A stretch of 63,860 nt of DNA, counting the filler. It is 5 parts of 5 records of this genome, joined end to end, with 100 filler letters (N's around TTAATTAATTAA, not from the genome) between each part and the next. Parts side by side here need not be neighbours in the genome. Positions count along the whole stretch, not along the records: positions 55,217 to 63,860 come from SRR31147125_1028; 4 more parts are not named here. One strand, 5' to 3'. Shown in pieces: positions 1 to 62,855 of this stretch. Under the pieces are notes generated by a model. That model was given only the letters and a program-made list of their open reading frames with translations, did not search any database and was not told where the DNA came from. Position 1 is the first letter of the stretch, and every line of letters starts with the position of its first letter. The translations under genes were made by a program, and so were the position numbers.

Positions 1-33
1 TTGTGCTTTTTTTTGACGAAAGGAAACCATTTT

Positions 34-1689
34 ATGATTGATATCATTAAACATAAAATCAAATATGATTTAGAAAATAAATATACGCATGAAACTTTTG
101 TTGTTGAAACACCGAAGCGAGGACACGCTGATTTAGCAATCCCTTTATTTGGATTAGCAAAATCATGGAAAAAAAGTCCTATGGTTATATTTGATGAACT
201 TCGTGAGGATTTGATGTATGAAGAAATCGATCATATTGAATTTATCGGTGGGTTTTTAAATATATTTTTAAAACGAGAAAACTATGCATCACAGGTCTTA
301 GAAGAATTACAAGTATTTGATCATCTACCTGATCAAAAGGAAACGATTGTGATTGATTATTCTTCACCAAACATCGCAAAGAAATTTTCTGTTGGACATT
401 TAAGATCTACGATGATTGGGAATGCTTTAAAAAACATTTATCAAAAAGCAGGATATAACGTTGTTGGTGTTAATCATTTAGGAGATTGGGGTACACAATT
501 TGGTAAGATGATTGTGGCATATCAACGTCTTGATAAACCTTTAGATTTATCAGTTGATCCCATTAAAAAACTTCAAGACTTATATGTCGGTTTTCATGAA
601 GATGCCAAAGAAAATCCTGAGTTAGAAGATGAAGCAAGAAAAGTCTTTATGGCATTAGAAAATGGCGATGAAACATATTTAAAACTTTGGGAACAATTTA
701 GATCACTTTCTATGCATGAGTTTATGGACATGTATGACACATTAAATGTATCATTTGACTCGTATGAAGGTGAAGCGTTCTATAATGATAAAATGGATGA
801 TGTGGTTCAAGCATTAGAAGAAAAAGGTTTACTTAAGATTGATGATGGTGCAACCATTGTCGACCTTGGTGATGATCTGCCACCTGCATTGATAAAAAGA
901 AGTGATGGAGCTACGCTTTATTTAACAAGAGATTTAGCAGCACTTAAATATCGATATGAAACATATGGTGCTAAAAAAGTATTATATGTTGTTGGTAATG
1001 AACAGCAATTACACTTTAAACAATTGGCTAAGGTTGCTAACATGTTAGAATGGCCTGTTACAATCGAACACATTAACTTTGGACTTGTTTTATTAGATGG
1101 TAAAAAAATGAGTACTAGAGGCGGGAAAACCAAAACATTAGAAGAAGTCATTAAACAAGCGATACATGATGCTAAACTTGCAATCATTGAAAAAAATCCA
1201 TCACTCCAAAACAAAGATGATGTAGCTAAAGCTGTTGGCGTAGGTGCTATTGTCTTTAACGATTTAAAAAATGAAAGACATTTAAATGTGGACTTCAATT
1301 TAGCAAATATGCTTAAATTTGAAGGTCAAACTGGTCCTTATTTACAATATAGTAGTGTTAGAATTGAAAGTATATTAAAAGATCTATCGATTGATCTAAG
1401 TCAATTAGATCCATCTGTTTATGCGAAAGATCATTATTTTGATGTCATTAAACAACTTGATTTATTCCAATCAGTCATTTTAAGAGCAAAAGAACAAAAC
1501 TCACCAAGTGTGATTGCAAAATATGCGATATCACTTGCACAAGCTTTTAATAGTTTTTATGGAAAACAAAGAGTTATCGTTGATGATGTTAAAGCGTTAA
1601 ATACAAATTTATATTTTGTCAAAACCATTCAATTAGTCATTCAAGAATGCCTATCTTTATTAGGTATACAAACACTTAAAGAAATGTAG
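34..1689 (+). CDS. argS: Arginine--tRNA ligase
   Basis: IDYSSPNIAKKFSVGHLRST (HIGH region), NHLGDWGTQFG, KMSTRGG and GQTGPYLQY motifs; ATG at 34 follows an AAGGA RBS. Confidence 0.95.
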   Translation: MIDIIKHKIKYDLENKYTHETFVVETPKRGHADLAIPLFGLAKSWKKSPMVIFDELREDLMYEEIDHIEFIGGFLNIFLKRENYASQVLEELQVFDHLPDQKETIVIDYSSPNIAKKFSVGHLRSTMIGNALKNIYQKAGYNVVGVNHLGDWGTQFGKMIVAYQRLDKPLDLSVDPIKKLQDLYVGFHEDAKENPELEDEARKVFMALENGDETYLKLWEQFRSLSMHEFMDMYDTLNVSFDSYEGEAFYNDKMDDVVQALEEKGLLKIDDGATIVDLGDDLPPALIKRSDGATLYLTRDLAALKYRYETYGAKKVLYVVGNEQQLHFKQLAKVANMLEWPVTIEHINFGLVLLDGKKMSTRGGKTKTLEEVIKQAIHDAKLAIIEKNPSLQNKDDVAKAVGVGAIVFNDLKNERHLNVDFNLANMLKFEGQTGPYLQYSSVRIESILKDLSIDLSQLDPSVYAKDHYFDVIKQLDLFQSVILRAKEQNSPSVIAKYAISLAQAFNSFYGKQRVIVDDVKALNTNLYFVKTIQLVIQECLSLLGIQTLKEM

Positions 1690-11118: not shown

Positions 11119-14100
11119 GTAGTGGTGGTGGTGGTGGTGGTGGTGGCGGGAGTCCCTTTCGGAACTTCTCACTCGATCTTCGTCGTCGGATCATCACAGC
11201 CTTCTTGCTCGCTTCCACCGCAGCCATAGCGGCTGCCGCCGCGGCCGCTGCGGCCGTTTGTGCGGCCCGAGACTGAGCACGTGGTCGAGATTCGGGTGGT
11301 TTCAACAACGCTTCCGAGTCTCTCGCAGCACGTCCCGATGCACGAAGCGTACCATACGTGCGCTTCTTGAGAGTATGACGAGAGAATCCACTCTTGGTAC
11401 GGTGCGCACTCTTCTTTGCAGTGCCGTCCGGATCCGTTTGGGTGGCAAGTTTCCATGCGATCAGTGCTGCCCCGCGACGGAACCACGTACCAGCCGGAGC
11501 AATACTCTTGAGAGGCACAGAAACCAACACATCCCGCCGTGTGTCATTGAGATACAAAGGAAACACAACGCCCGTGGGCTTTTCCCCTTCTACGGAGGGA
11601 TTGATCCAATGAAGGACACACGACGGGAGGGCGGTCGTTAACTCATACGTCTCCACAAGACCGGCCGACCATCCAGCGCCTTCCAACGACAGACCTTCCA
11701 GGACAAAACTACACTCCGAGTCGGATCCTTCTCCTCCAATTTCCAGTACAGGCTCCAACATCTCCAAGGGCCATCCTTTCGCTTGAGCGACTGCTTGACG
11801 CGAGGCCGTGATAAAGGCTTGTGCTTTGAAAAGCCCTCCCAACCACACCTTCTTGTTCCTGTAGTCCGACTCGGCAGACAAGGTTGCGAGTTTGCGCACA
11901 CGATTGGAGAAATCATCTAGCCAGTCGCCCAGTGGGGTTGTGGGTGGAATCGGATACACCTGCCAGTCACACGGAATAAGACCCTTGGAAAGACTTCTCA
12001 TTAAGGAAGAGGTGTAGCTCGTGGGTTGGGAAGTTCCATCACACGCAAGAGCAACATCTCCCAGATCCATACGAATCTTTTCAAGCAGTCGAGCGCCTGT
12101 ACGCATCTCACGGACAAAGCAACGGAACAGGGGATCTTCCAACTTCTGTGGAGTGCTCTCGGGAAGCTCAAGACTCTCGGGAAGGTCTGTCAACCAATCA
12201 TCAACAAGAAGATCCAACTCTCGCATCCACTTGGGTCGAGTCACTCTGTCCTCAACACCTCCCTTTGACACATCTTCCAAAACTTCACCACCCTCTACAA
12301 CTTGTGCCTGTTGAAGTCGAGTAAGCATCTGGTGTCCTTGAAGGGTTAGAAGCATTCGCTCTGCGTTATCCGGCAATCCAAGCCAACTGGGGCTTTGGGC
12401 GTCGGGGATTTTGATATCCATTCCAGTACATCGTGGACATGGAAGGCGGACGGTCCACAGAGGACTGTCCCACCCTCCTGAGTCAAGAGGGGGGAATTCT
12501 GTCGACACCGCTCCTCGGTGAAGATCTCCTTCAGAAACGAGTCAAGGAATCGGGCGTCAAAGTCGTTGTCAATCTTTCCTCCATAAATCGATACGCCAAG
12601 AAGAGTACGGATTGACACCCAGGGCAGACAGGCGGTCTCCTTCCCACCTTGCCCTTTTGTGGCACGATCCACCCAGCACGAAAGCGTGTCAAGCGCGAAT
12701 CGGAAATCGGCATCGTTGAACTCGTACACCTTCGACCATCCCAGGGGAGCGTAGCGGAGACGATCTTGGATGACAGCATGGAACCATGCCAACAGGAAGA
12801 CCACTTGAGCATGTTGAATGGGTGGGCGTTCGATGCGGTCTGCAGGTGTTGCCGTGAACGCTTTCTCAAGTGATGACTTGAGACCCACAGGGGGTTCAAG
12901 GACAAGAATCGTAGAGCGCACGAGGAGGCCAACAGGAAGCCGAGGATGAATGTCCGAAGTGAGCAAAAGACGGAACCCCTCGTGGAACGCTTTCACATTC
13001 GTCGTTTGCTGTTGCAAGTCTTTCTCTAACTTTGCAATCCACTCGAGAGACATGTGTACATTTCGAAGCATCACCCAACCACCATTTCGCATTCCATGAG
13101 CAATAGCACGTTCCGCAGCAGCGATACTCTCCGAGGAACCCATGGCAAGAGAACAACAGGAACATTTCAACTCTGCGGCCACTTCGTCCACAAGCGAACC
13201 CGGGTCATTTCCAGGTGTGGAGCACAAGAGGACAGGGATATTGGGGGCAATCTCTTTGCTGACAATATCAACAAGTTGGTGGTGAGCCGGGGCCATTTGG
13301 AGAATTCCTTCCCCAAAGTACGTCTCAAGAAAACGTGTAGCTGTCGCTACAAGGCGATCAGGCCGAAGAGCTTTGACAACCAACAGATTCTGGAGTGCGC
13401 GGCCCGGCAGGGACAAGGGTTCACCGGTTTCGGTACGTTGCCACCCGCTCGGAATGCACGTTTCGGCATGGGAACTTTGCAGAAAACGACCCCATTCCAT
13501 GGCATGCCCGCCAATGTGCTTGGCAGTCTCGGCCAAGTGAGGCAGAGACAGAAGAAACTCGTTCATACGTTTCTCCTCTTCGGGAGTGAGCATACCCTCG
13601 GGGATACCGGACCTGGGCGGGGCCTTTGACGGCGATAATCCAACATGACCCTTGATGAGATAGGTCCACTCGTGTTCGTTTGCAGCACTCCCAAGACGAA
13701 TCTGTGCCAAACGAAGGGCCCACATGATACGATCTTCATAGCGAATACTCCGGGCAACACGCACAAAGACCGTTCGGAAGAGTGCACGTGTCAAGATATT
13801 CAGTCGTGCGTTTGCATCAGCCAGCCCATTCAGCTCAGGCGTTTTGTGAAGCACGTCACGGAAGAGAGAGAGGAAGAAATCCAGGGAGAAATGATACAGG
13901 AAATGGACTTCAGGTAACAGCCGTAGTGCAGTGTAGATTTGCGTCCCGTAGCAGGCGATCGGTTGGTACACTGCACTGACACGGGCCAGTTCTTCCATTA
14001 CAGCCTCCGAGTCCGCAATCTTGGATTGGATTTCTTGTGCTTCACTCTTAACTGTCTCCAGTGTGACCACCAGGTTGTTATCCTCCAGCAAATTCCCTTT

Positions 14101-17100
14101 GGACTCGCTGAGAACGGTGAGGAGTTGCTTCTCCAGGTTCCGTAGGCGGACCTTGAAGTCACCCTGCAACTTCAACAAGTTGCTTCTCTTCTCATCTACA
14201 TCAGGACGCTCAGCCTTGAGCACCTGGTGCAAACACTGAGCCTGAAGACTGCTTGCAGTGATGGTGAAGTTGACAAAGGACACGCGAGAACAGAGCGTGG
14301 GAGAGAATTTCGATGTTGGTTCACGGGTCGTGAGGAAGAGACGGAAGGCAGGGGAGAAGTCGATTTCCTTGTTGCCCAGACGGACAACATTACGGCCACC
14401 CGCTCGACAAACGTCTTTGTTGAGCACAGGATTCAGAATGGGATCGAAACTTTCAACATTCTCGATCAACAAGGAGCGTCCAAAACGCAAGGATTGTTCC
14501 AACAACTTGCGGAAGGATTCATCCGCAAAGCTGGTTTTTTGAATGCTTGCCTCTTTGTACTGTTGCACAAGGAATTCGGTGGCTTGTCCCGACGGATCAA
14601 TAACAAGAGGATAGCGAGTGAACCGCCGCAGCAGAATGGCATTCTCCACACAAAGATCATCTGCAGAGAGTCCATTTGCGTGCCAGGCGAGTCGATCATT
14701 GGGGGTGGAAAGATAGTCGACGAGACTCAGATGATCCATGACAGAAATCCCCACACCTGCAAAATGGCGTTTCCACTCGTCAACAAGTCGTTTTCGATAC
14801 ATCTCGTCAAAGAACCCAATATAGGAAAGAAACATGGACGCCAACAACACATCGCCCACAAGGGTCTCACTCTGTAGATCCATGTTCCCCATCTCTTCAA
14901 TCCAACGTTCTCGCTCGGAGGCCAGAGACTGGAGGAGTGCCATAGCTCGTTCCATTTTGGCTTTCACATCGTTCATCTCGTTCTTCGTTGCCTCAATTTC
15001 GGCTATCATGGACGCGTACTCGGTCTTGTACTGTTGAACACGGGCCTCCAGTTCCGGGATCACACCACTCTGCAACTCCTCTTTTCGTTCCTCCAGTGCA
15101 TTCACCTCACCCTCGAGCCGCTCCAACTCATCCCGTGCCGGTTGCAATTGGTTCAACAAACCACCGTACACGAATTGAGCCTTGACCCACGCCACCAGAG
15201 GCCCACAAGCGCGACTGGCCTTGTTAATCGTTTCGAAGTTGAAGTGAGGATTGGAAAGGAACTCTTTTCCAGTTTCTCTCGAAGTTTGGCATCCTTCCAC
15301 AAGTGTTCGGGATCAAAGTCCAAAATGTTGGGAATGAAATCGGGTTTCATCATGACCTTACGAATATCGTCCCACGAAGATGTTCCCTTTCCCATAACAA
15401 GGCAAACAGCTTCCAGGGCCATACGAACGGCCTCGGGAGGGCGTGCCAGAGACCGATACTCATCAATTTGTTTGCGATTGATCATTTCCACAGCTGCCTT
15501 GGCATCCGCCAACTGACGCTCTCCATCTGCCAGCCCCTCCTTCACTTGACGCGCTTGTGCACCTGCCACATTCGACTGACATTCCACTTCATGGGCAATG
15601 GCAATGGCCTCTTCCTTCGTGTGGGATGCTTCCTGCTCATTCTGAATGATCTCTTGAAGCTTGGCATTTGCCGCCGTACAACGAACTTCCAGCTGCGCCT
15701 CGGTACGTTTCAGTCCCTCTTCCAACGCGGTTACTTGGTGTTCCGTTTGCTGCAATTTCTCAAGACCCCTACTGATGTGACTGCGATCATCTTCCAGTTC
15801 GTCGTGTTTTTCTTGCATAACACTGATCAAGTGTTCGACCATATCCATATAATGACGTGGCGTTACGAAGATTGTAGCTCGATTTCGATCGCGTTGCAGG
15901 CGACAAAGGTCACGAACTGTCTTGTGCACATGCACCATGGAATTCACCACGGCATCCCGATACCTTGTAGACGATATCTATCAGAACAAAACAAGAGGAA
16001 GAAGGAGAAAGCGTACCCAAATTCTTCTCCACGAGCCACCCATGTTGGTGGTACATACTCCTCATGCCCAAAGTCCAATACGGCCGTCATCTCATAGCCC
16101 ACTTGGTACAGAACGACATCGGACCAGTCACCAACCCAGTCCACCACACAACGATTGAAGAGTGCCGGGGAGGTGGTAGCCGCCTGGGAGAAGTCGGTAC
16201 TGGTTGGATTCATTGTGAAGACAACATGAAGATTACGTTGAACTTCCTCCACGAAACGTGCGTACAGCTCCTCCTCCGTGTTGAGGATCAACCCTTCACG
16301 GAGAGCAGCTTCTCCACATTCGCGAATCAACGCACGGAAATCATCACCTTCAAACAGTCCAGGAACTTCTCCACTTGCCAACAGCGAGTTCATGGCCTCC
16401 AAGAAAGCCGAAGAAAGAACGTTGCCTTCGTCGAAGATGAACGTTAACCGTTCACCCCGTACGCCTGCACGCTTAACCACCCCACGCAAGTCCTCTTCAA
16501 AATCTTCCACTGTGTAATTCTTGTGTGTCTTGAGTTGGAAGACACTCTGATCGTTCATCCATGCCGTGAATTTGGTAAGAATCGTACGGCCACTCCCACT
16601 GATCCCCATGAGGAGACAGTGGCCAATCGGTTGCTTGACGATCCGATCCACACGAAGCAAGTGATCAAGGAATTGATTGTGAATCACAAGGGTTCCGCTG
16701 AACTCCTCCTCACAGAAGGTCTCTGCCTTGCCTTGTACGAAGTTGCGCAAGTCTTCAATGTCTACCGATTCATAGACCCCTGTAATCCAGGAAGAGAAGA
16801 GGATGGGACGACGCAGTGCATTGGCTGAGAGACCAGGGAAGTGTTTGGTAGCAATTGTGTCCAAGGTGCGGTCCGTCCACTCGCGCTCTTCTTCGGTGAC
16901 CAATCTGTCTTGGAACAATCGCAAACCCTCATAGGCCCACAGACGGATGAGGGTATCACGAGTGAGGTTGGACATTTGACGAATGGCCTCGAACCTAAGA
17001 ATCATACGAAACGGTTAGAGGCAACGAAGCCGAAACTCAAACGGGCAGACGTACATGGCACGCATCCAACGACTCAGTTCACGTGGAGAGTAGACATAGT

Positions 17101-20100
17101 GCGGTTGGACATCCAAGGTGAAACGTTCTTTGGATGCCTCGTACATCTCTACCATCGCAGCCGTTAGTCCTTTCGATTCGCCTTGAAGCCGTGGTTGGAG
17201 TTTCAACAACCCTCGAGACAGCGTTCCATAGATTTGATGCATGGAAGAAGTCCCCGGGTAGTCAACGAGAATCAACGGTGCATGACGTAGGAAACGATGG
17301 GAAAGAGGCACACGCCCTGGATAGGAAGGGGGATTACCCGCTCCCACAAACTGAATCCGTTCAAGTTGAACCCATGTGCGATCCAAGGTGCGCCAAAATC
17401 CACCTCGCTCAACCAATTGACGGACAAGGGCAATCACTCGTTGGGTGCCATATCTGTGTGTACGGAGTGGATTCAGCTTCCTCGTCCTCGTCCTCCTTTT
17501 GAGGAAATACGCACTTATCTGCTTCAGGAAGATTGATTTCGTCACAGAAGACAATCAACCACTTCTGAACCTGTGTGGGTTTGAGAACAAGGCCAGTCGA
17601 AGTCTTGATGTAGCAGCAGTATTGTTCAATCTTCTTCAGTAGTGTTTCTGGAGAGGTGCCGGATGAAAAGCTGAGATTCACCACCTGGTACTGAACACAC
17701 ACACACACACGTCAGTCAAATAAAACCTCCGTTTGGATGCACAACAAACCTCAGGGAAGGCGCGAAGAGTGGCATTAAGAGACATGGTCTTTCCTGAGCC
17801 CGGGGGCCCACAAAGCAGAAGCGGTCGATGCTCGGCCAGCCATGCCCGCATGACTTCCATGTGACGGACAGTGTCCACAGTGGGAATTACAAGGTCGGAA
17901 GACACGACTTGTTCGGGATCCACGTCGATGGACGGTACCTGTTCACTCCACAAAACCCATTCCCCCGTATCAATATTTACATGGTAGTCAATAAGTGGGG
18001 CCCTAGACGGATCGGGTGTGGGGATCGCATCGGTCAAACCACCCACGGTCTTGCCGTAGTCCTCACGATCCCCGAGAGACACAGAACCGGCAAAGCCCCA
18101 GAGGATAGCAAAAAGCAATCGTTTCAAGAGAAACCGGGCTTTGTGATCATGGGTCATGGGAAAACCGGGGTGTCCCACATTGTAGTCATAAATGTCTAGG
18201 ATGGCCTTGTTGACCAATGAGAAGAAGGCCGTGAGATGTTCCATGCGCGTGAAGTCCATCACATGTTCGTATTCTTCACCTGCGAGGCAAAGCGCACGTT
18301 GTACAATCCCCTCCTCATCAAAGTGTGCTTGGAGGATGTCGGCGCACTCTACCTGGAGCGCCACAAGTCCCTGTGTTTCGGCAACTTCTTCCTCTGGGAC
18401 CGTCCTTGCATCTTCCACACGAAGCGGAAGATTGTAAAGACGGTTGATATAGTACTGCAGGATCATGGTTGTGGAGATGATGTCCTCAGAGAACCATACC
18501 ATGCCACAGCGACTGACCGTCGCAGGGGTTGCATAGTTCAGGTCTTGTACCTCGAAGAGGATGCGAACGTTAGGTGGAATTCCAAGCCGCTCGCCGTTCG
18601 GCAGGGTTAGCACTTTGTTGTCGTCCAACACCGAGTTCAAATTCTCAACCCAAACCGAATCCACATCGCCATCAAACACGATCCAGTGCCGCTTCGTCAT
18701 CTCCCCGCGCACATTGTCGAGAATACGACGAAGAATCCCTGTGAACAGGCCATCAGTCCAGTCGCGTGTGACAGAATCCTGCATCCCAAAGCTGTGGCAC
18801 ATATGAGCAGAGGTAACAGAAGTAGTATGCACGTACAGTTCTTCTTTGCTAATGGACTTGGGATCCAGAACGTGCGTCTTCACTTCCACACCCTCCGCAC
18901 GGCCCATAGCCTCCGCAAGGACTTGCCACGCAGTTGTTTTCCCACTAGCCGAAGAACCAACGACCATAATTCCGTGCGCTAGCTGTTGCACTTGGTGAAG
19001 CTGAAGAATCTTCTCTACCCACACCTGCGTTGGCGGCTTGGGGTTAGGAGGGCGAACCCGCACACCACACACACACTCTCTCTCTGTATAGGGAACACAT
19101 ACTCCACCCGGAACCAAATGCCTCTCTGTGGCCACTGCCAACACTTGTTGGTGGAGGCGCTCCATACTGATCCGGTCGAATTCGGCGTCGGGGAAGACGT
19201 CTCGCACGAGTGAATACAGAAGGGGGACATCCTCGGCCACAAGTTTGGGAATCACTGTCTGACAGAAGGACATCACAAGAAGTCCTTGCTCCACAAGTGG
19301 ATCACTTGTTCCGTCTGAAGAGGTGTCCGCCAATTGATGGCGTTTCAGTTGTCCCGAGGAAGAGAGAACTGCTTTCAGGGCACGCAGGCCCCAGTCGTAG
19401 TGGGATTGGGAGGAGAGTTCCGACTCACACAACCCAAAGAGGGGAACGACTTTGCGTGCGAGCGCCTCGGCAGTTCGGAAGCCCTGGCAAAGAATCAGTC
19501 TACTGTGTGTGTGCGGTCTTTGAGGAACAGCATACCTGCGAGAATAACATAACCTCGGCAATCGTCTCGGAGTCGGGTCGAATCATGGCAAAGGGCCGGA
19601 AGAGATTCTTCAGATTATCGGGCAAGTTGCGTCGGCCTGCGTAGCCGGGATTCATTGTTACGAAGATTCCCATGTGTGGATTCAGCGGGACGGATCGTTC
19701 TAGGAGTTCGATTTCTTGTTGATGCCCCTGAAGGCCGAGTTGGATACTTCGAATTTGTTGGGAGACGGCCGACAACATGCGCTCCTCGAGACGATTGAAT
19801 TCATCGAAACAGCCCCACGCCCCTACTTGACACAGACCGACAAAGATACGCGCCATGGATTTGACCTAGTAAGCAGTGTGAGGAACGGAACACGAGGGCA
19901 CGAACAACTACATACGTCGAATGCCTCGTCACAATTGAAAACCAGGACGTATCGACCCAGTTGTCCCCCTAATTGTTTCACAGACTCGGTTTTGCCTGTC
20001 CCTGCAGGCCCATAGGGACTTCCTCCCATTCCCCCATGCAGTGCTTGGGCCATGGTAAGATAGAATCGATCGGTGAGGGATGTTTGCACGAGACGGTCTC

Positions 20101-50546: not shown

Positions 50547-53426
50547 ATGACTTGTTTAAATAAAATATTATGGAATGTTTATAGGGGAGATACTATAAAT
50601 GTTCCTTTAATTTATGAATTAATAGACGGTGCTACATACACTATTCAATTGAGAAAAGAATATGATGATACTGAATATATCACTTTAACAATAGAAGATA
50701 CAAATATTGTAATCACTTCTGAACAAAGTGAAAATTTAGTAGAAGGTTCTTATTTAGTAGAATTAGAAGAAACCAATGTAGGAATAGTAACAACTGTTCA
50801 AACTACAAAAGTTTACATTAATGAAGATTCTACTAGAATATATGGTGAAGCTATACCCGATTGAGAAACAAAAGCAGATGTAGTAAGGGCAGAATGACCA
50901 GAAATAGTAGCAGGTTCATTTTATACAAGGTTAGAAGATGGTTCATTAGAACTTTTAACTAGTTCTGGTTCTGTAGATTTAACAGAAGTTACTAATACAA
51001 TAGCACAAGAAGTAACTGATAGAACTAATGCAGATTTAGATTTAGCTGGTACTGGTAGAACAACTGAAACGATTAAACAAAATACAGATAATTTATCTAC
51101 ACATATTGCTGATGAAAATAATCCACATTCTGTAACTAAAATACAAATTGGTTTATCAGATGTTGATAATACAAGCGATATTAATAAACCAGTATCTTCT
51201 GCTGTACAAACGGAATTAAATTTAAAATCAGATTCTACACATAATCACAGTACAGAATATGAACCAATAAATACAAATATTCAGGAACATATTAGTAATA
51301 CTACAGGTAATCCACATTTGGTAACTAAATCAGATATTGGTTTATCAAACGTACCTAATACTGATTTTACAGATGCTGTAGCTGCAAATACTGCCAAAGT
51401 TGGTATAACTACTGAACAAACAAACGATATTACAGCGAATAATGCAAAAATTAGTTATACTGATGCAAGTGATGTAACAGCTAATACAGCAGCCAGACAC
51501 ACACATTCAGAAGGTGAAACAGCAGCTATAACAGGTGCTAATTTACCTTCTGGAACTAATGTATTTGCAACTATGGATGATATTTCAGATTCAGGTAGTG
51601 GTGATATGATGAAATCAGTTTATGATACTGATAATGATGGTAAAGTAAATTCTGCTGATAATTCCGATACTGTAAATAATTTAACTGTAGAAACAGCAGT
51701 ACCAGTAGGTGCAATTTTTACAGATACAATTTATTCACACCCTGCAACACATAGTATGACAGAAGTTTCTGGATTACAAACTGAACTAAATAGTAAAGCA
51801 GAAATTTCAACTACATATACAAAAACAGAAGTAAATAGTGCTTTAGCATTAAAAGAAGATTCATTTACAAAAAGTACAGGATTTAATAAAGATTTTGGAA
51901 CAATAGCAGGTACAGTAGTTGAAGGTAATGATGTAAGATTAAGTGATGATAGAACACCATTAGCACACAATCAAAACATAAGTACAATTAATGGTTTACA
52001 AGCTGAATTAGATGGTAAAGTAGATGATTCACAAGTATTGACAAATGTACCAGCTGGTGCTTTATTTACAGATACAATTTATGATGATACAGCGATACAG
52101 GCAGAAGTAGATTTAAATACTGCTAAAACAGGAATTACTACACAACAGGCTAATAATATTTTAGCTAATAATGCAAAGATTAGCTATACAGATTCTGCTG
52201 CTGTAGGTTTAAATACTACACATAGAACTACAACTACTGGAAATCCACATAATGTAAACAAATCAGATGTAGGTTTAGGTAATGTACAAAATACAGACTT
52301 AACAGCAGATGTAGCAGCCAATACTTTAAAAGTTGGAATTACTACACAACAGGCAGCAGACATAACAGCAAATAATGCTAAAATTTCAGCTACAGGAACA
52401 GAACTAGAACCTGCTGATATTGGTGTAACAGTTCAGGGTTATGATGTTGATACAACTAAACAAGGTGTAATAACATTATCAAGTTTAGGTTTTACAGGTG
52501 ATAATGATTCAAATAATTATACACACCCTGCAAATCATTCACCTAGTATTATTACACAAGATTCTAATAATAGATTTGTAACCGATACAGAAAAAAGTAC
52601 TTGAAATGGTAAACAAGATTCTTTATTAACAAATCAAATTATTGATTGAAGTGTAACAGGCATAGAAGATTTACATATTGATAGAATACCTGCTTTAGGT
52701 TATGAACCTGCAAACAGTAATATTCAATCACATATATCAAATACAAATAATCCACATTCTGTAGATAAAACTGATGTTGGTTTAAGTAATGTTCCAAACA
52801 CCGATTTTACAACACCAGTAGCAGCAAATACTTCACATAAAAATACTACTTCTGGTAATCCACATTCTGTAACTTTATCAGAGTTAGGTTATACAGGTGA
52901 TAGTGATGCTAACAATTATGTACACCCAACAAATCATACTATTTCTGAAATAACTGGATTACAAACTACATTAGATGCTAAAGAATCTTCATTTAGTAAG
53001 AATACAGCATTTAATAAAAACTTTGGTTCTGGTTCAAGTACTGTTTGTGAAGGTGATGATTCACGTTTAAGCGATAATAGAACACCTGTAGATAGTTCTG
53101 TTACATACGTAAAAGTAGATGAAACATTAACCCAACGTTCAACAGATAATGATGGAACTTGGGACTTTTCAGCTAATGGTTTAGTAGATGCTGCAATTAG
53201 TAGTAATACTACAGTTACATTTACTAATTTACAATTAAACAAAGTTTTAAAAGTAAAAGTAGTTGTAACAAATTCAGCAACTATTACACTACCTTCTTAT
53301 GTTAGTATTTTAGATGGTTCAGCAGAAGCAAGTGGTGCAAATGGAACTTATTTCTTCTACTTCGATTGTTGAAAAAGTACAACAACAGAAGAAGTATTAT
53401 TAACAATAAGAAAGGAAGCAGCATAA
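50547..53426 (+). CDS. Phage tail fibre-like protein, 959 aa with five in-frame TGA codons
   Basis: One frame through TGA at 50862, 50895, 52602, 52647 and 53370; NPHxVTKxxxGLxNV repeats; ends in a TAATG overlap with the next gene. Confidence 0.85.
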
Positions 53427-54085
53427 TGATACCAAGTATAGGACAAATGATTCCGAGTAGTGCAGGTGGTTCTCTTATTCCATATTATGTAACAGCTTCA
53501 AATTTATATTCAACAACATTATCTTATGGGTTTGAAGGAACATACCCTACTGGGATTGAAACAGGTGATATATTAATTGGATGTTCTATCTGTTCAACAG
53601 GCACATCGGAAATTAAACCTTCTGGTTTTGATACAGTTAGTTATGAAACTCATTCAAGCTTTACTGTAACTATTTCTAAAAAAATAGCAACTGGTTTAGA
53701 AAGTGGAGATTTTACACTAACTTCGAATTCTGCTCAAATGAATGCATTTGTTATGTATGTATTCAGAGGTGCAACAGCTTCAATCCCTGTTACCAATGAA
53801 GCTTCAAGTAATATAGTAGTTGGGTCTTTAACGACAGTACCTAGCTTTTCAGTATCTAGTAATGGCTCATTAGCTGTAGCAATTATATCAATAGAAGACA
53901 ACCCAACGTGTACTTTAAGTGGTACAGGGTGGGTACAACAATCAAATAAGTCAACTACTACCTATACTGACGGTAGAATAGTTTTGGCTACTAGTGATAT
54001 GTTAACTTCTGGAGCAACATCGGTATTAGAGGCATCTCATTCCGCTGATTATAATACATATACAATATTTACTTTAAATATTTAA
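53426..54085 (+). CDS. Phage tail-associated beta-rich protein (219 aa)
   Basis: ATG coupled to the upstream TAA; S/T-rich; PTGIETGDILI and VFRG segments resemble minor tail proteins. Confidence 0.6.
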   Translation: MIPSIGQMIPSSAGGSLIPYYVTASNLYSTTLSYGFEGTYPTGIETGDILIGCSICSTGTSEIKPSGFDTVSYETHSSFTVTISKKIATGLESGDFTLTSNSAQMNAFVMYVFRGATASIPVTNEASSNIVVGSLTTVPSFSVSSNGSLAVAIISIEDNPTCTLSGTGWVQQSNKSTTTYTDGRIVLATSDMLTSGATSVLEASHSADYNTYTIFTLNI

Positions 54086-54584: not shown

Positions 54585-55046
54585 ATGAAAAGATTATGAT
54601 TTAAAATAAAAAAGTTTTTGAAGCAAGTTTACAATCGAATTAAGGAAGGTTCAAAAATTTATATACCAGTTGCAATTGAAGTTGTAGAAGTGGTAAAAAA
54701 GGTACTAGAATCACCTGTAGATGATGTTATAATTTCAGTTGTTGGTTCAATTGTTCCAACATTACCAACTGTAAAAATTAACTATGTAAAAGATAAAATA
54801 GAATCAGCTTTACCTAAATTATTATTAGAATTAAATTTGATTAATACAGCAGTACAGAGTGATGATATAAATGAACAGTTGAAAGAAGTACTTAAAGTAT
54901 TTAAACTTTTACCAGATGAAGTAAAAGCAGAAAAATATCACATTTTAGCCTCTAAATTGCTAGTTATCTTAGGTGATGGTAAAATAAGTTGAAGTGAAGC
55001 AGTAATTTTTACTGAATGGTATTATCAAACATATATAAAGAAATAG
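54585..55046 (+). CDS. Phage hypothetical protein, 153 aa, TGA at 54597 and 54990
   Basis: MKRL(W)FKIKKFLKQ...DGKIS(W)SEAVIFTEWYYQTYIKK*; ATG one base after the upstream stop; terminator follows the TAG. Confidence 0.7.
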
Positions 55047-55216: not shown

Positions 55217-56159
55217 CATAGCAATTGACTTCAATGTAGAGATGAGCTTTAATGTTGCTGAAATTAAAACCATGCTAGATGAATACGAAGCTGATAAGAA
55301 TGCTGGAATGGATATAGAACTTATGTCAGAGAGCTTATACGACTACACAAGCGGCTATCCATACCTAGTAAGTAAGTTATGCTATGTTATAGATAAAGAT
55401 CTAAATGCTGACTTCTCAAAAGAGGGAATAGAGGCAGCCGTTAAATTAATACTAGAAGAAAATAACACGCTGTATGATGATTTGATTAAAAATATAGAAA
55501 ACAACCAGGAACTATACAACCTTGTAGAAAAGATTATAATTCGTGGAGATAGTATTGACTATGTTCAGACAAATCCTTCTATCTCATTAGGAACAATGTT
55601 TGGAATATTCCGAAAGACAAAAGATAAAAAAGTAAGAATCCATAATAAAATATTTGAAATATTACTCTATAATCATATGATTTCTAAGATAAATGAAAAA
55701 GACAATCAGTTGTCTAGGTATAATTTTAGAGACAACTTTATAAATGAAAATGGAGATATAAATTTAGAGAAGATACTGCTAAAGTTCCAACAATTCATGA
55801 AGGAAAATTATAGCGATAAGGATCAGGACTTTTATGAGCGGCAAGGAAGACTGCTGCTAATAGCATTTATAAAGCCAATTATAAATGGAGTAGGCTTTTA
55901 CTATATAGAGAATCAAGTAAGCTATGAGAAAAGATTAGATATGGTAATTACATATAATAAAAAAGAGTATATCCTTGAATTTAAGGTTTGGTATGGTAAG
56001 GAATACCATGAAGCAGGTTTGGATCAACTAGCAAACTATCTTGAAATTAAAAACCATAGTAAAGGTTATCTAGTTGTGTTCAATTTTAATAAAAGCAAAG
56101 AATACAGCAGTAAATGGCTAAGTAATAAAAATAAGGATATATTTGAAATAATCGTGTAG
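55217..56159 (+). CDS. AAA-like ATPase with C-terminal PD-(D/E)XK domain (5' end missing)
   Basis: IAIDFNVEMSF, YTSGYPYLVS, FIKPIING, RLDMVI...ILEFK and QLANYL motifs. Confidence 0.8.
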
Positions 56160-56315: not shown

Positions 56316-56321
56316 ATATAC

Positions 56322-57638
56322 TTAATCGTCGGAAGTTCCATAAAGAAGAGCTTCCAATTCTTTCTCGTATTCATCGTTATCAGGGATAGGATCAACTAAC
56401 AAATTAAAAGGAATTTCAATATTAGGAAAATATGATTTTACAATATTTATAAGTTCTTTAGTGTAATGTTTTCTAGAGAGAGGATTATAAGAACCGATTA
56501 AAGTTTCTGTAATAGAATTAAATGTTTTTTCTATTTCATGCAAAATAGTAAAATTAGTAAAGCCCATCTCACGTCCTATTCCTCTCATAAACTTTAAGAA
56601 AATAAAGTAATCATATGATTCTGATTTAGTTTTCTCATTTAAAATATTTCTGAGAATAGAGGTTGTTGAAATATCTTTACTTTTAGAAATACTAAGTGGA
56701 GTATAATTCTCTTCTAAAATAACAAATTCTCTTAAAATCGCAACAAGGTCATATACGTATAAAGGGGTGTATAGTCCTACTCTACTTAAATATACGTCTC
56801 TTATCTTCAATACACTATTGACATATCCTTTTTCAACGAAATTTTTTATTTTGACCATATAATCTTCTCTTGAGTAAGAAGTGCCGCAACATTTATCAAT
56901 GAAATAATTAAGAGTGATATCTTCGAGGTTAATGGGATACAAGTATTCATAGTCTTGATAATGTTCTAATGGGTCGTTAAAGGAGTCTTTATATTCAGCC
57001 CATAATTGTTTATGTATGTATTTTTCTTCTGCAAACTTTCCTCTGAATTCTAGGCTTTTAATTTTTATTATTGAAAGTTCTTCTAGTGTGTAATGATCTT
57101 CATATTGCTTTAGAGTATAGTTATTTTTTAGTTTTGATTGAAGAATTTTTAAATGTAGTAAGCAATTATCAGCATCAAAACTATGTTCAAGTAGTTTATT
57201 GTAAAGGTGTTGCCAAAATAAATAATGAAATTCGGCAAAAGCTTCAGCAACGTCTTCAATAATAGAATCTATATTTTGTAGTTCGAAATTATTAATTAAG
57301 TTTTGCTTAAACTCTATAATATTATCACTATATTTATTGCTGTTGAAACCATCCGGTGTGGATGGTGTACGAGGCACAATCTCTATGTTTTCCTTGCTTA
57401 GTTTCAATAATATATTGTCCTCATAGTCATGAATAAAGCCAAGAAGGTTCCTATATTTTTCAAACTTAATGTATTCTTTGTCTAAATTAAAGAACTTAAA
57501 AAGAGATACTTCTCTTCTAAGTAAATTTCTTCCAATTATTTTGAAGGCATCTTCTTCTTTGTATGTTTTATAGTCAGATAACTTTCCCTTAGCTAAGTCA
57601 GCATTATATATTTCTCTAATTAAATCTATTTTTTTCAA
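56322..57638 (-). CDS. Hypothetical protein (438 aa)
   Basis: Long ORF in AT-rich DNA; AAGGGGA RBS with TTG start; no family recognised. Confidence 0.7.
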   Translation of the reverse strand: MKKIDLIREIYNADLAKGKLSDYKTYKEEDAFKIIGRNLLRREVSLFKFFNLDKEYIKFEKYRNLLGFIHDYEDNILLKLSKENIEIVPRTPSTPDGFNSNKYSDNIIEFKQNLINNFELQNIDSIIEDVAEAFAEFHYLFWQHLYNKLLEHSFDADNCLLHLKILQSKLKNNYTLKQYEDHYTLEELSIIKIKSLEFRGKFAEEKYIHKQLWAEYKDSFNDPLEHYQDYEYLYPINLEDITLNYFIDKCCGTSYSREDYMVKIKNFVEKGYVNSVLKIRDVYLSRVGLYTPLYVYDLVAILREFVILEENYTPLSISKSKDISTTSILRNILNEKTKSESYDYFIFLKFMRGIGREMGFTNFTILHEIEKTFNSITETLIGSYNPLSRKHYTKELINIVKSYFPNIEIPFNLLVDPIPDNDEYEKELEALLYGTSDD

Positions 57639-57780: not shown

Positions 57781-58680
57781 ATGGAAAAATATAATGAAAT
57801 GGTGAGTAGAGGATTAGATTTAAATGAATTAAATAATATGGATCTTTTAAATATAGGAGAAATTAATTATTATAATTTATATGATGAAGATCCAGAAGTC
57901 TTTGAAGATATGGAAGATAATTTGGGATGTATTAATGAGGTTAAAGAATTCTTAACTGAAAGAATTAAAAGAATGAGTGCTTTTATAGAAGAGATAGGTA
58001 ATTTAACTGGTGAAATAGAAAGTGATGATAGACTTAAAAAAATACAAAAAGATTGGTTCAATTTAATTGAGTTTAAAATGAATTTAGATGCATTAAATAA
58101 AAAATTTATGAAGTGTAAGATAGAATTAATTTTGAAAAATGTAGTTACCTGGTATATGAAATATGGTCAAGATTTAGAAGAGTTTGAATCACTAGATGAC
58201 TGTATTTATCATTATTTTGAATTTTCAGGAGAAGAAGAGATTTATCAAAAAATAAAGAGCAACCTTTCTTCAATAGAAATAGAAATATTGAATGGAAATA
58301 TTTCAGAGAATGAAAGAATGATCTATTTTATTTTAGATGGCTCTAAAGTAAAGTATGAAAGTACTTTACTACACTATTTTTATTCTCGATTTGAGTTAGA
58401 TAGAGAGATGTATTTACTTTACAAGGATTATTCAAATGAGAATAAAAAGTTTGAGAGAAAACTTCAGGAGGTGTATATTGAATTAAACGACTTATTGTGT
58501 GCTACGCAGCTCGAAGAAAGTTTAATAGAAGAGTATGATAATTTAAAGAAATTTATGGAGCCAAATGAAGTAATAAAAAGAGAAAATCTTATGAAAATAA
58601 AAAGCAGTATACAAGAGTTTGCTACAGATAAAGAAACTTTAGATTTGCTTATTGATATTGAAGAATACCTTGAAGCATAA
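57781..58680 (+). CDS. Hypothetical acidic helical protein (299 aa)
   Basis: GGAGG RBS and long ORF; no family recognised. Confidence 0.7.
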   Translation: MEKYNEMVSRGLDLNELNNMDLLNIGEINYYNLYDEDPEVFEDMEDNLGCINEVKEFLTERIKRMSAFIEEIGNLTGEIESDDRLKKIQKDWFNLIEFKMNLDALNKKFMKCKIELILKNVVTWYMKYGQDLEEFESLDDCIYHYFEFSGEEEIYQKIKSNLSSIEIEILNGNISENERMIYFILDGSKVKYESTLLHYFYSRFELDREMYLLYKDYSNENKKFERKLQEVYIELNDLLCATQLEESLIEEYDNLKKFMEPNEVIKRENLMKIKSSIQEFATDKETLDLLIDIEEYLEA

Positions 58681-59649: not shown

Positions 59650-60069
59650 TTAATTAAATGCTATCTTAAATATTTCTAGGGCAACTTGAAATTGATTAAT
59701 ATTAATTTTAAAGCCATATTTTTTAGCTTTTAATTCGGGATTCATCCAGTTTGCTGACAAAAATATATAACCAAAACTTTGTGCTAAGTTATAGTGGAAA
59801 TTTTTATATCCTACTATAACTAAATCACCTGGAATGAAAGATCTATTAAAATCTTTTACTGTTTTTTTAGCTTCAGCTCTGGTTAAAGTATAGATTGTCG
59901 ATCCAAAGATCTGTTTTAATTTATTACGCTTATTATAATCATTAGACATAAAAATAAATATATAAGTTTTTTTATATTTTTCGATTATTTCATATAATTC
60001 TTTATATTCATCTTCCTTAATTTTTAAAATTATATCAGCAGGTACTAGAATAGCTTTAATTTTCCCCAA
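59650..60069 (-). CDS. Hypothetical protein with a degenerate HAD-like fold
   Basis: GGAGGA RBS, TTG start; LVIVG...LAQSFGYIFLSANW resembles HAD motif IV region without the Asp residues. Confidence 0.55.
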   Translation of the reverse strand: MGKIKAILVPADIILKIKEDEYKELYEIIEKYKKTYIFIFMSNDYNKRNKLKQIFGSTIYTLTRAEAKKTVKDFNRSFIPGDLVIVGYKNFHYNLAQSFGYIFLSANWMNPELKAKKYGFKININQFQVALEIFKIAFN

Positions 60070-60175
60070 TTTAATCCTCCATTAATTTTTCAATTTTTAT
60101 AATACTTAGTCGAATCTACTTATCTTTTATTTAAAGGGTTGATATAGTAACACTAACAGTTTTTTATTCTCCTTA

Positions 60176-60205
60176 AGATGGGAGAACCTAGTTGTTCTCC
60201 CATCT
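60176..60205 (-). terminator. Hairpin downstream of the peptide gene
   Basis: AGATGGGAGAAC-CTAGTT-GTTCTCCCATCT, perfect 12-bp stem, no clear U-tract. Confidence 0.5.
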
Positions 60206-60253
60206 ACTAGGAATTTAATCATTTATAAGAGCAAAAGGTTGTGACGATCTTTT

Positions 60254-60331
60254 TTAACATGCTCCACATGAAGCCTCCGCAAAAGCTAAAGCAGTAGTTA
60301 GAATAAAAATTAAAAACATTGTCCTTTTCAT
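60254..60331 (-). CDS. Putative secreted signalling-peptide precursor MKRTMFLIFILTTALAFAEASCGAC (25 aa)
   Basis: AAGGAG RBS; basic N-region, hydrophobic core and A-F-A cleavage site; divergent from an HTH-TPR gene. Confidence 0.75.
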   Translation of the reverse strand: MKRTMFLIFILTTALAFAEASCGAC

Positions 60332-60477
60332 AAATATCATCTCCTTAAAATTTTTCTTAATTTTAACGAATTAATAGACAAAAAAAACAAATTATGATAA
60401 TATGATTTAAAGTTAATAAGAAAATGTAATTTTTATTATTAATTTTATCGAATAACTAAAAATTGTGAGGCAAAACA

Positions 60478-61719
60478 TTGGAATTATTAAGTTCAGGAGA
60501 AAAGTTAAAAAAAATAAGAAAAAAACACAAAATTACTCAAAAGGAGTTAGTTAGAGGTATTACTACAACAGCGACATTGTCTTATATTGAAAATAATAAG
60601 TTTAATATAAGTGAGGAATTAGCTTTAAAACTTTGTGAACGGTTAAATGCTTTTAGTGTTGATTCAAAAAATCTTATTGAACCTAAAGAACTTTTTAAAT
60701 CTAAAAAACAACTTGAAGAGGAGTATGTAAATCATTATTTGAAAAAAATAAATAAAATGAAAGTTGAAAAGCTGCACAAAGTGTTAGCTCCTTTTAATGA
60801 TTCTGATAATTATTATCAGAAAAACAGATTATTTTTTGTTGCTGCAGCTTATTTGTTTAAAAAAAATTGGAGTTATAGTCGTAAATTGTTCGAAGAAGTG
60901 GTTGATATTTCAATCTTTAATAATTATAAATTTTCAAATGCTACAATATTATTTCTACAAAGAATCTATATTCAAACTGATTTAAATGCTTGTCAGAATC
61001 TATATAAAAATTATAAACACCATCTTTTGCAGGGGGATTATCCTGTTAAAGGGTTTGTTTTGTACAACTTTGGAGTTACTTTTTTGAGGTTGGAGGAGTA
61101 TAAAACAGCATATTTACTTTTTTATTCTTCACTTCAATTAAAAACTTCAGATAATGTAAATGAATGGGGAATGAATAATTTAGTTCTTTGTCAGCTCAAA
61201 TTAAAAAAATATAATGAAGCTTTAGACTTCTGTTCTAAGCTACTTAATAAAACCTCAAATGATTTTATTAAAAAGAATTGTTATTCTAATCTACTTTCAA
61301 TAGGAATACGAACGAAAGATTCTTTTTTAATCGAAAATAATATTGTTAAACTTGTTAATCATATTGAAAAACTAGAAGAAAGCTTTAAACATCAAGGATA
61401 CTTTTCTATTGCTAAGGGGTACTCCTTTCTTGGTGATAGGTTGAATAGTGGTCGGTTTTTTCTTAAAGAATTACAACTTGGTTATAAAATTAAAAATTCT
61501 CATTTTGACTTTAATGTTTATGAGGTGTGTATAGAAAATCTACTAGAAGTCTATCTTGATCTAGACATAAAGGAATTAAAAAATCTTGAGAAACATATTT
61601 TTGAAATTCCTTATGAAAATTTATCTAAACAACTTCTTTCAAAAATTATTCATAAATATAAAGCTTCGTATCCTTTAGCAGCGTTTAATATATTTTTGAA
61701 AAATTTAATATCTATTTAA
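60478..61719 (+). CDS. XRE-HTH plus TPR transcriptional regulator (RRNPP-like)
   Basis: GEKLKKIRKKHKITQKEL...LSYIENNK HTH; TPR-like helices (LYNFGVTFLRLEEYKTA, NNLVLCQLKLKKYNEA, YFSIAKGYSFLG). Confidence 0.8.
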   Translation: MELLSSGEKLKKIRKKHKITQKELVRGITTTATLSYIENNKFNISEELALKLCERLNAFSVDSKNLIEPKELFKSKKQLEEEYVNHYLKKINKMKVEKLHKVLAPFNDSDNYYQKNRLFFVAAAYLFKKNWSYSRKLFEEVVDISIFNNYKFSNATILFLQRIYIQTDLNACQNLYKNYKHHLLQGDYPVKGFVLYNFGVTFLRLEEYKTAYLLFYSSLQLKTSDNVNEWGMNNLVLCQLKLKKYNEALDFCSKLLNKTSNDFIKKNCYSNLLSIGIRTKDSFLIENNIVKLVNHIEKLEESFKHQGYFSIAKGYSFLGDRLNSGRFFLKELQLGYKIKNSHFDFNVYEVCIENLLEVYLDLDIKELKNLEKHIFEIPYENLSKQLLSKIIHKYKASYPLAAFNIFLKNLISI

Positions 61720-61829
61720 CCTCCTTTTAGTTGAGGAAATTATCTGGTTTGATGTGATAAAATATATGTTATTTTTGTACTTAAGCTTAAAAACGTGGCT
61801 AAAACATCTAAAGAAATTAATAACAAAGA

Positions 61830-61880
61830 AAAAGAGAGGTCAACCTAGAAGTTAAATTCTAGGCCTTGACCTCTTTTTTT
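61830..61880. terminator. Bidirectional terminator between the regulator and the pyrF operon
   Basis: AGAGGTCAA-CCTAGAA...TTCTAGG-CC-TTGACCTCT with flanking A/T runs. Confidence 0.7.
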
Positions 61881-61892
61881 AGTTTAAGTTTA

Positions 61893-62192
61893 TTAGTTTG
61901 TAGACTGAGAATATACAGATATCTGATTATAAAAATCCAATGCTTTCAATTTTCCTTCTTCTTCAGATGAAAAATTATTAAATCGGCATAATCCATTTTT
62001 ATAGAAATGAAAAATTTTTGATTCTTCTTTAACAATTAAGCAATTATCATTTAGAAACATTCCCTTCATGTGTTTTGCTTTAATCATTTCTTCAATGGTT
62101 TTCAAATTAATTTCATTTTTAATTTTCATTACTGTAGTAAATGTTTCTAATTCCGAACAAAATTTTTCAGTTTTAATAAAAGCTAATTCCAT
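61893..62192 (-). CDS. Hypothetical protein (99 aa), possibly TBP-like fold
   Basis: Abuts the pyrF stop; FHFYKNGLCRF...SSEEEG pattern. Confidence 0.6.
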   Translation of the reverse strand: MELAFIKTEKFCSELETFTTVMKIKNEINLKTIEEMIKAKHMKGMFLNDNCLIVKEESKIFHFYKNGLCRFNNFSSEEEGKLKALDFYNQISVYSQSTN

Positions 62193-62855
62193 TTAATTCG
62201 TCTCTTTTTCATTAATAAAGTCAAGAACAGCTTTTCTAGGGTTATCGGCTTGGTAGATAGATCTTCCAATTATTGCATAATTAGCGCCAGCATCAATAAC
62301 TTGCTTAAACTTACCTCCTTGTGCTCCCACGCCACATGAAACAATTATTTTATCATTTCCAATTATTTTCCTCAATTTTTCCACTTCTTCAGGTCGTGTT
62401 CCAGGGGCTTGAATACCAAAACAGTCTAGTAAATTACATAGTTCTGCAAAATTTTGAGAATGCTGTCTAGTAAACTCTAATCCACCCGGATGAGTTAATT
62501 CTGTAACTATTATAATTTTAATTTCATCCTTAGATTTTTCTTTAAGTTCTAAAATGGCATCTGATCCAATAAAACCATGAACCATAATAGCATCTGCACC
62601 AGCTTCTCTAGCTAGATCGATTATTCTATTATTCGTAACAGGAACATCAGCAACCTTTAAATCAGCAACAATAGGTAATTTATATTTTTCTTTAACTTCA
62701 GTAATTATTGAGATTCCTTCTTTTAATATTAAAGGATAATTAAACTTAACTGCATCAATTAAGTCGTGACATTGATCCATAACTTCAAAAGTTGTCTTTC
62801 TATCAGGTGTGTCTAGAGCTAACATAATATTACTATTTTGATTTAATAAATTCAT
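62193..62855 (-). CDS. pyrF: Orotidine-5'-phosphate decarboxylase (archaeal-like)
   Basis: LALD, DLKVADVPVTN, VHGF, GVGAQGG and IIGRSIY motifs; GGAGG RBS before ATG 62855. Confidence 0.85.
   Translation of the reverse strand: MNLLNQNSNIMLALDTPDRKTTFEVMDQCHDLIDAVKFNYPLILKEGISIITEVKEKYKLPIVADLKVADVPVTNNRIIDLAREAGADAIMVHGFIGSDAILELKEKSKDEIKIIIVTELTHPGGLEFTRQHSQNFAELCNLLDCFGIQAPGTRPEEVEKLRKIIGNDKIIVSCGVGAQGGKFKQVIDAGANYAIIGRSIYQADNPRKAVLDFINEKETN

Follow-up and report, generated by a model that had tools for sequence, protein, structure and literature searches.

In the 63,860-bp stretch of DNA analysed here (the window), a gene for a 413-residue protein that carries a helix–turn–helix (HTH) domain followed by tetratricopeptide repeats (TPRs) is transcribed divergently from a 25-codon open reading frame (ORF) whose translation is a signal-peptide-like leader and the heptapeptide EASCGAC. 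With reasonable probability, this pair is best explained as a receptor/propeptide cassette of the RRNPP type, similar to PlcR and NprR, and our verdict is that it represents an RRNPP-like subfamily outside the classical Firmicutes with an unusually minimal, thiol-bearing signal. An earlier prediction made for this DNA (the original prediction) had proposed an RRNPP-like peptide-communication module at this place; that proposal is supported by the architecture of the regulator, by its match to PlcR and by the pairing of receptors with exported-type micro-ORFs among its relatives, which is far above chance. The coordinates of all features are collected in Table 1.

The propeptide gene and its AAGGAG ribosome-binding site are present as predicted. 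Direct reading of the region and the ORF list give the same translation, MKRTMFLIFILTTALAFAEASCGAC, with a basic n-region (MKR), the core TMFLIFILTTALAFA and A-F-A at positions −3 to −1. The h-region consists of 15 uncharged hydrophobic residues with a mean Kyte–Doolittle value of 2.27, and the seven residues that follow A-F-A, EASCGAC, are the predicted exported product. Translation thus bears out the leader and the 7-residue remainder of the original prediction, with export through Sec and signal peptidase I (SPI) judged by a heuristic, where the published RRNPP method uses SignalP. The ORF list also gives an alternative 28-aa form that begins at an in-frame ATG at 60340. As this ATG abuts the AAGGAG and the ATG at 60331 stands 9 nt behind it, the 25-aa form is likely to be the product. 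A filter for such micro-ORFs (K or R among residues 1–8, an uncharged hydrophobic window 11 residues long and a Shine–Dalgarno-like motif) passed five small ORFs over all 63,860 bp, three of them in the AT-rich bacterial part (53.8 kb; 0.056 per kb). Two of these three have TTG starts and lie inside genes; the ORF at 60254..60331 alone has an ATG start and is intergenic, and no other ORF in the window is convincing as a member of this class. A lipoprotein reading of the precursor was set aside, since E-A-S-C, judged by eye, does not fit the lipobox as commonly described. Contigs of three DNA runs matched the locus in short pieces and low-complexity stretches, none of them bridging the small ORF or showing a variant.

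The regulator proved to be the 413-aa HTH and TPR protein that had been predicted. An XRE-type HTH occupies approximately residues 7–60, and a C-terminal TPR superhelix extends from approximately residue 70 to 413; the start codon is confirmed by alignment with relatives. The HTH scores 32.3 bits with Pfam HTH_3, whose cutoff is 23 (E 1e-7), and the repeats are recovered by a profile search of solved-structure sequences and by the structural model. No NCBIfam or Pfam family names the receptor, NCBIfam giving only HTH-level antitoxin matches far below cutoff. When the family profile was searched against the sequences of solved structures, consensus TPR proteins dominated (E 1.5e-36), and PlcR (2qfc) was the sole sequence matched across both the HTH and the TPRs (E 1.8e-4; query 7–247, chain 7–250). 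The AlphaFold 2 (AF2) model, computed from an alignment of the receptor with its full-length relatives (A1), is all-helical with 23 helices, a predicted local distance difference test score (pLDDT) of 91.6 and a predicted TM-score (pTM) of 0.80. This fold and the HTH–TPR architecture fit an RRNPP receptor. In structural alignments, RapI reached Z 17.8, NprR 16.3, the phage phi105 Rap 15.7, RapH 15.5 and the pLS20 Rap 15.4, with PlcR at Z 14.2 over residues 5–358. Co-folding of P0060, the receptor of the nearest relative, with its own 41-aa precursor from locus L001 gave a score of 0.01, which speaks neither for nor against binding.

The RRNPP signature, as given in parts of PMC10075063, comprises a small propeptide of 10–100 aa, a Sec/SPI signal, a receptor of ~250–500 aa, TPRs and direct adjacency of the two genes. 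All five features recur in the window: a precursor of 25 aa (28 aa in the alternative form), a Sec-type leader by our heuristic, a receptor of 413 aa, TPRs and a distance of 146 bp.

The receptor belongs to a small family. An HMMER search of 1.84 billion representatives returned 59 proteins at E <= 1e-3 and only ~15 full-length relatives, at 24–36% identity, which were aligned as A1. A word-indexed protein search with the receptor gave a single match (29% identity), to which a profile query added nothing, and scans of genome contigs and metagenome contigs with the window receptor revealed no close relative. Scanning metagenomes with a second alignment (A2) yielded 13 distant loci with 24–42% identity over partial lengths, and a viral scan gave one match, to the HTH only. 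The named relatives come only from metagenome-assembled genomes (MAGs) of Fusobacteriaceae and Fusobacteriales, and of 187 genomes from the latter order, 59 are matched by profile A1 (E <= 1e-10), many of them carrying several copies. The receptor family is small, undescribed and centred on Fusobacteriales, with one member in Mycoplasmatota. In a quick maximum-likelihood tree of 69 rows, built without the duplicate locus L002 and without rows that cover less than 330 profile positions, the window receptor groups with L001 and P0003 (SH-aLRT 95) inside a clade of 13 rows (98); its branch is long (1.12), which makes its exact position unsure. Gene context is known for four of the 13 rows, namely the window, L001, L004 and L005, and the nearest relatives, P0003–P0007, are from Logan contigs.

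To examine the pairing among relatives, 65 loci were collected and their receptor ORFs located by profile A1. Micro-ORFs were sought from 450 bp upstream to 300 bp downstream of each receptor, with a looser look where no match appeared. Before curation, 30 of the 59 receptor rows passed the filter. Curation dropped the duplicate L002 (identical to L001) and the non-credible ORFs L056 and L061, set aside as ambiguous L010 and the second receptor of L009 (flagged peptide belonging to the neighbouring receptor), and added L014, whose precursor of 105 aa exceeds the length limit. In the curated set, 26 of the 58 distinct receptor copies have an adjoining signal-peptide-like micro-ORF led by a ribosome-binding site, compared to ~0.04 such ORFs expected by chance per 750-bp search zone at the window background of 0.056 per kb. 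The expectation that peptide ORFs adjoin the homologues of the regulator is thereby upheld for these 26 copies.

The divergent layout, which had been likened to rgg/shp, is common to all four context-known members of the window clade. In the window, A-F-A is followed by EASCGAC, and the gap to the aligned receptor start is 149 bp, or the predicted 146 bp when counted to the TTG at 60478. The other three members have SFA followed by DNNKTGFTINVEIPIWDSVF with a gap to the aligned start of 130 bp (L001), MFA followed by NECGTLSRLF with 302 bp (L004), and VFS followed by NDRGGAL...NDRGGAL with 128 bp (L005). In the sister Fusobacteriales clade and in a further clade, the peptide gene is found 11–51 bp downstream of the receptor on the same strand. 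Across clades the junction x-F-A or x-F-S followed by D, E or N recurs (AFA/E, SFA/D, MFA/N, VFS/N and TFA/N), pointing to a common cleavage site. What lies behind the peptide gene varies. In L001, the nearest named relative, the minus strand of positions 3659–4567 holds both a 66-aa bacteriocin-like ORF with a double-glycine leader (Bacteriocin_IIc E 0.0018, below cutoff) and a gene for an Rce1-like/CPBP protein (E 2.3e-17), and in L004 it is a 504-aa Beta_helix protein (E 4.5e-9). A receptor/micro-ORF pair that is kept as the cargo changes from locus to locus is what a cognate signalling pair predicts. Bacteriocin-type genes are a typical output of peptide quorum sensing, and the gene order of L001 suggests that bacteriocin production may be under peptide control in this Fusobacteriales MAG.

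Two further groups of precursors were seen in the family. Just downstream of the receptor in the Fusobacteriales loci L014–L018, L020 and L021, whose receptors are more distant members of the family, are precursors with 2–7 tandem units of ~10–19 residues, each closed by GGW; an S-S-R-R-x-x-S-G-G-W unit, for instance, is repeated five to seven times. These are candidates for multi-copy pheromone precursors in a diderm order. They resemble the tandemly duplicated Phr-type propeptides known in Bacillota (described in parts of PMC11343458) and differ from them in standing in a diderm phylum, whereas the window precursor holds a single 7-residue unit. On a distant branch (24–42% identity), the metagenome contigs L033, L039, L040, L042 and L044 carry divergent signal-peptide micro-ORFs 161–280 bp upstream of the receptor, and some precursors of this group have a repeated D-P-x-N-V-E-P unit.

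The host was placed by the arginyl-tRNA synthetase (ArgRS) encoded at 1..1689 of the window, which is 77% identical to that of a 'Mycoplasmatota bacterium', 76% to that of an Acholeplasmataceae MAG and 62% to that of Mariniplasma anaerobium. It is 99% and 88% identical to two Logan proteins, and among the matches listed for Fusobacteriales, where 180 of 187 genomes were matched, identity is 37–43%. Judging from these identities, the host is a wall-less Mycoplasmatota bacterium. Genes for an FeFe-hydrogenase and a NuoF-like protein in the window make it plausible that the organism is an anaerobe, and identical short contigs (251 nt and 186 nt, without differences) in two sediment-metagenome runs place it in sediment. 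The host thus stands outside the Bacillota and their mobile elements, to which RRNPP hosts described so far belong. Mycoplasmatota descend from Bacilli, according to passages of PMC10868615. Fusobacteriales, unlike Mycoplasmatota, have no Bacilli descent.

Several observations weigh against a signalling cassette. Pfam TPR_12, TPR_1 and TPR_2 fall below their cutoffs in the receptor (E 0.002–0.005), and generic TPR proteins lead the Foldseek search against the PDB, in which PlcR (3u3w) appears at rank 38. In the structural alignments, unrelated TPR proteins score Z 15–21 (LGN/Pins 21, OGT 18), so that Rap, NprR and PlcR stand among generic TPR proteins with equal or higher scores. The comparison of the regulator with RRNPP receptors that the original prediction called for therefore came out mixed: PlcR was matched by profile, and Rap, NprR and PlcR aligned at Z 14–18, yet structure does not discriminate RRNPP receptors from other TPR proteins, and the modelled fold and architecture fit such a receptor without singling it out. 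Pairing is not universal in the family either, as 30 of the 58 receptor copies have no adjoining exported-type ORF by the filters used. Because the best relative in the collections searched is only 36% identical, purifying selection on the 25 codons is not measurable, and a search of RNA runs found no run with the locus. For signal peptidase I and the oligopeptide permease (Opp), our view of this wall-less host is limited to the window. Finally, the exported part is the shortest among the 26 family peptides (7 aa, against 10 to about 85 aa in relatives), and 12 further in-frame codons follow the TAA before the next stop, which makes a recent truncation possible.

This last point is the basis for regarding the small ORF as a decayed remnant, in which a premature TAA has cut a longer propeptide and left the cassette non-functional or its signal altered. 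We think this very unlikely: the Shine–Dalgarno sequence, start codon and signal peptide are intact, the receptor is full-length against the family profile (2–415 of 420), an open stretch of 12 codons is unremarkable in DNA of 25% GC, and with seven residues the peptide falls within the usual 5–10 residues of mature RRNPP signals. That the small ORF arose by chance or is untranslated, leaving the regulator as an orphan XRE–TPR transcription factor, is highly improbable, even though AT-rich DNA holds many short ORFs and the locus has neither close relatives nor a matching RNA run. ORFs that pass the filter are rare in the 53.8 kb of the AT-rich part, the Shine–Dalgarno sequence is strong and correctly spaced, and the same arrangement is found in all four clade members of known context. 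The small ORF could instead encode an exported peptide that is a regulated product and not the ligand of the receptor, for example an antimicrobial or metal-scavenging thiol peptide. TPR–HTH regulators that lack an adjoining peptide are frequent in the family, and the neighbours of the peptide gene in L001 and L004 code for products of exported or antimicrobial type. We nevertheless hold this to be decidedly improbable, as the position, orientation and junction of the micro-ORF are kept while the downstream genes differ, which a cognate pair fits better.

A different question is whether, in a genuine cassette, the two cysteines of EASCGAC have a function of their own, such that the peptide would be active only as a dithiol, as a C4–C7 disulfide ring or with a soft metal bound by S-C-x-x-C, coupling density sensing to redox state or metal. 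In its favour are the two cysteines within seven exported residues, the serine that precedes C-x-x-C, and a probable anaerobe with FeFe-hydrogenase and NuoF-like genes, for which the sediment-metagenome contigs make oxic/anoxic transitions plausible. The S-C-x-x-C spacing resembles that of metal-binding loops with T or S before C-x-x-C and of redox CxxC motifs. The relatives argue in the other direction. The exported part contains a cysteine in five of the 26 family precursors (window, L004, L033, L039 and L044), and the 21 peptides without any indicate that the receptor family does not need thiols. Two cysteines in a CxxC arrangement occur in the window precursor only, so no further micro-ORF with a CxxC tail, for which the original prediction had suggested a search, was seen beside the homologues examined. 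Among the neighbours scanned there is no thiol-oxidoreductase, metal-transport or metal-resistance gene. The receptor itself has an invariant cysteine, C238, and a C-Y-S-N motif in the family consensus; as these are kept with or without cysteine in the peptide, they offer no argument for thiol chemistry. We therefore consider a functional cysteine pair, the distinctive element of the original prediction, unsupported and unlikely. The fuller proposal, by which EASCGAC would be a chemically switchable pheromone whose redox state (dithiol or 4–7 disulfide ring) or soft metal gates an RRNPP-type receptor in a wall-less sediment anaerobe, from a family otherwise found in diderm Fusobacteriales, strikes us as distinctly unlikely. 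Most simply, the two cysteines would be part of the recognition sequence and would occur as free thiols in an anoxic habitat. A cysteine has precedent among RRNPP pheromones, the octapeptide that activates ComR having one.

If the pair is a receptor/propeptide cassette, the following course of events may be proposed. The 25-residue precursor would be exported through Sec and cut after A-F-A, releasing EASCGAC directly, with no pro-region to trim. At high cell density the heptapeptide would be re-imported by an oligopeptide permease; a scan of ORFs in the window revealed none of Opp type, and the SBP_bac_8 and BPD_transp_1 proteins that did appear are not assignable to Opp. Inside the cell, EASCGAC would bind the regulator on the concave side of its TPR domain, and binding would alter the action of the HTH at the shared divergent promoter region, for which two 17-nt direct repeats are candidate operators. 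The peptide gene would thereby come under feedback, and the co-oriented 139-aa gene that follows a hairpin is a candidate target, probably controlled as well.

The elements named in this scheme lie within and beside the divergent intergenic region. The two repeat copies are 82 bp apart and are the only ones in the window, a count that is partly circular because these copies themselves supplied the pattern. Promoter-like hexamers, identified by consensus match only, are TAGACA-17-TAATAT with a TG on the plus strand (60375–60403) and CTCACA-16-TAAAAT on the minus strand (60469–60442); shuffled sequences contain no fewer such sites than the region does. The hairpin is located 48 nt beyond the peptide stop codon, between the peptide gene and the next gene on the minus strand, and its arms have no further copy in the window. 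Its 117-nt context folds at −26 kcal/mol (z −2.74), and none of 200 shuffles folded as well. The 12-bp hairpin of the original prediction is thus present, perfect and stable; with no U-run after it on the minus strand and no call there in a terminator scan, it is not a canonical intrinsic terminator, and this reading was rejected. It is possible that it acts as a partial terminator or RNA-stability element that would limit read-through into the 139-aa gene. The product of that gene had no match in Pfam, NCBIfam or PHROG at the thresholds used, and the ESM Atlas gave a weak HAD-like lead (0.92).

Table 1. Features of the proposed receptor/propeptide locus (positions in the window)
Feature	Position	Strand	Description	Basis
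Receptor/regulator gene	60478..61719	plus	413 aa; TTG start; GAGG 7 nt upstream	ORF list, Pfam, HMMER, AF2, structure searches
Propeptide gene	60254..60331	minus	25 codons and stop	Direct reading, ORF list, Kyte–Doolittle
Shine–Dalgarno AAGGAG	60341..60346	minus	9 nt before ATG at 60331	Direct reading
Divergent intergenic region	60332..60477		146 bp; promoter-like hexamers on both strands	
17-nt direct repeat TTAATTTTAWCGAATWA, copy 1	60357..60373	plus	26–42 nt upstream of peptide start	
17-nt direct repeat, copy 2	60439..60455	plus	23–39 nt upstream of regulator start	
Hairpin	60176..60205 (arms 60176–60187 / 60194–60205)		Perfect 12 bp; 6-nt loop	
139-aa gene	59650..60069	minus	Co-oriented, downstream of peptide gene; own GGAGG and TTG start	

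We compared the cassette with the characterized RRNPP systems. PlcR–PapR of the Bacillus cereus group shares with it an XRE-type HTH fused to TPRs and an adjoining gene for a Sec-exported propeptide, and its active signal is the C-terminal heptapeptide. PlcR has ~285 aa and five TPRs, and papR, located downstream in the same orientation, encodes a pro-region that is trimmed; here, in contrast, a 413-aa receptor stands beside a divergent peptide gene whose precursor lacks any pro-region, and sequence similarity is marginal. NprR–NprX, from the same group, is alike in size class and in its exported heptapeptide signal. NprR has ~420 aa with an HTH and ~9 TPRs, nprX is co-transcribed from a downstream position, and its active peptide comes from within the exported part. 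The structural match to NprR (4gpk; Z 16.3) extends over 312 residues with a root mean square deviation of 10.1 Å, and 4gpk is not among the best 60 of 126 profile matches (E up to 1), where no significant sequence match to it is listed. In streptococci, some rgg/shp pairs are divergently transcribed, as is the pair described here. Compared to Rgg–SHP and ComR–XIP, the window precursor has a classical n-h-c signal peptide and the receptor is longer, Rgg receptors having ~285 aa against 413 aa. The SHP and XIP precursors have no Sec signal and leave through PptAB, according to parts of PMC10075063.

The surroundings of the locus are heterogeneous. The segment from 50,000 to 62,200 has the lowest GC content of the window (0.25–0.30), and four of its ORFs (56322..57638, 57781..58680, 53366..54085 and 54618..54992) match no Pfam, NCBIfam or PHROG family. 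Another (55242..56159) has a PD-(D/E)XK match only (E 6.4e-5), and 51318..52604 shows weak phage-tail-like matches. The segment is a possible island, which would include the signalling cassette. A phage or plasmid origin of the locus was considered and rejected: in eight neighbouring ORFs no PHROG hallmark was found beyond the weak tail-like matches and one family of unknown function. At 58706–59623, converging on the 139-aa gene, is an ORF of 305 aa for a DinB/IMS-family polymerase with IMS and HhH domains. No match is listed there for the C-terminal little-finger domain that we presume for DinB-family proteins, and the ORF may be truncated. Farther away, positions 11,000–21,100 have ~50% GC in a window of ~30% GC and are flanked by ordinary AT-rich bacterial genes. 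The minus-strand ORFs 12346..15300 and 17678..19561 in this block match eukaryotic dynein heavy-chain domains (AAA_9 with E 1.8e-78, Dynein_heavy, MT stalk, AAA_6 and AAA_7), and the block is either a chimeric assembly with eukaryotic DNA or something stranger.

PMC10075063, as far as its relevant parts go, attributes RRNPP signalling to Firmicutes and to their phages and plasmids, and the survey behind RRNPP_detector was confined to complete Firmicutes and viral genomes. The text of that paper, supplementary tables aside, does not mention Fusobacteria, Tenericutes or Mollicutes, and the RRNPPA structural-phylogeny paper leaves Fusobacteria and Mollicutes-type phyla unmentioned. Full-text literature searches returned only incidental mentions for RRNPP in Fusobacteria, by titles and the opening lines of abstracts, and no RRNPP paper among the matches listed for Mollicutes-type terms; for RRNPP with cysteine and disulfide, titles and abstracts showed no disulfide-bearing signal. 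According to passages of a 2025 preprint (10.1101/2025.10.09.681396), all characterized RRNPPA sensors are activated by small, unmodified peptides, so a disulfide- or metal-gated signal would be a first.

In summary, what is new here is an undescribed receptor/propeptide family, of which the window holds the most minimal precursor and the unique thiol pair. The same architecture is found in a wall-less Mycoplasmatota bacterium, and the receptor family in about one-third of the sampled Fusobacteriales genomes, which widens the range of envelopes over which exported and re-imported peptides may work. With a signal peptide and exactly seven residues, the cassette also offers a minimal test case. 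If the peptide were indeed a switchable pheromone, one receptor would read both cell density and exposure to oxidants or metals, and Gram-positive-style peptide signalling would be seen to operate across very different cell envelopes.

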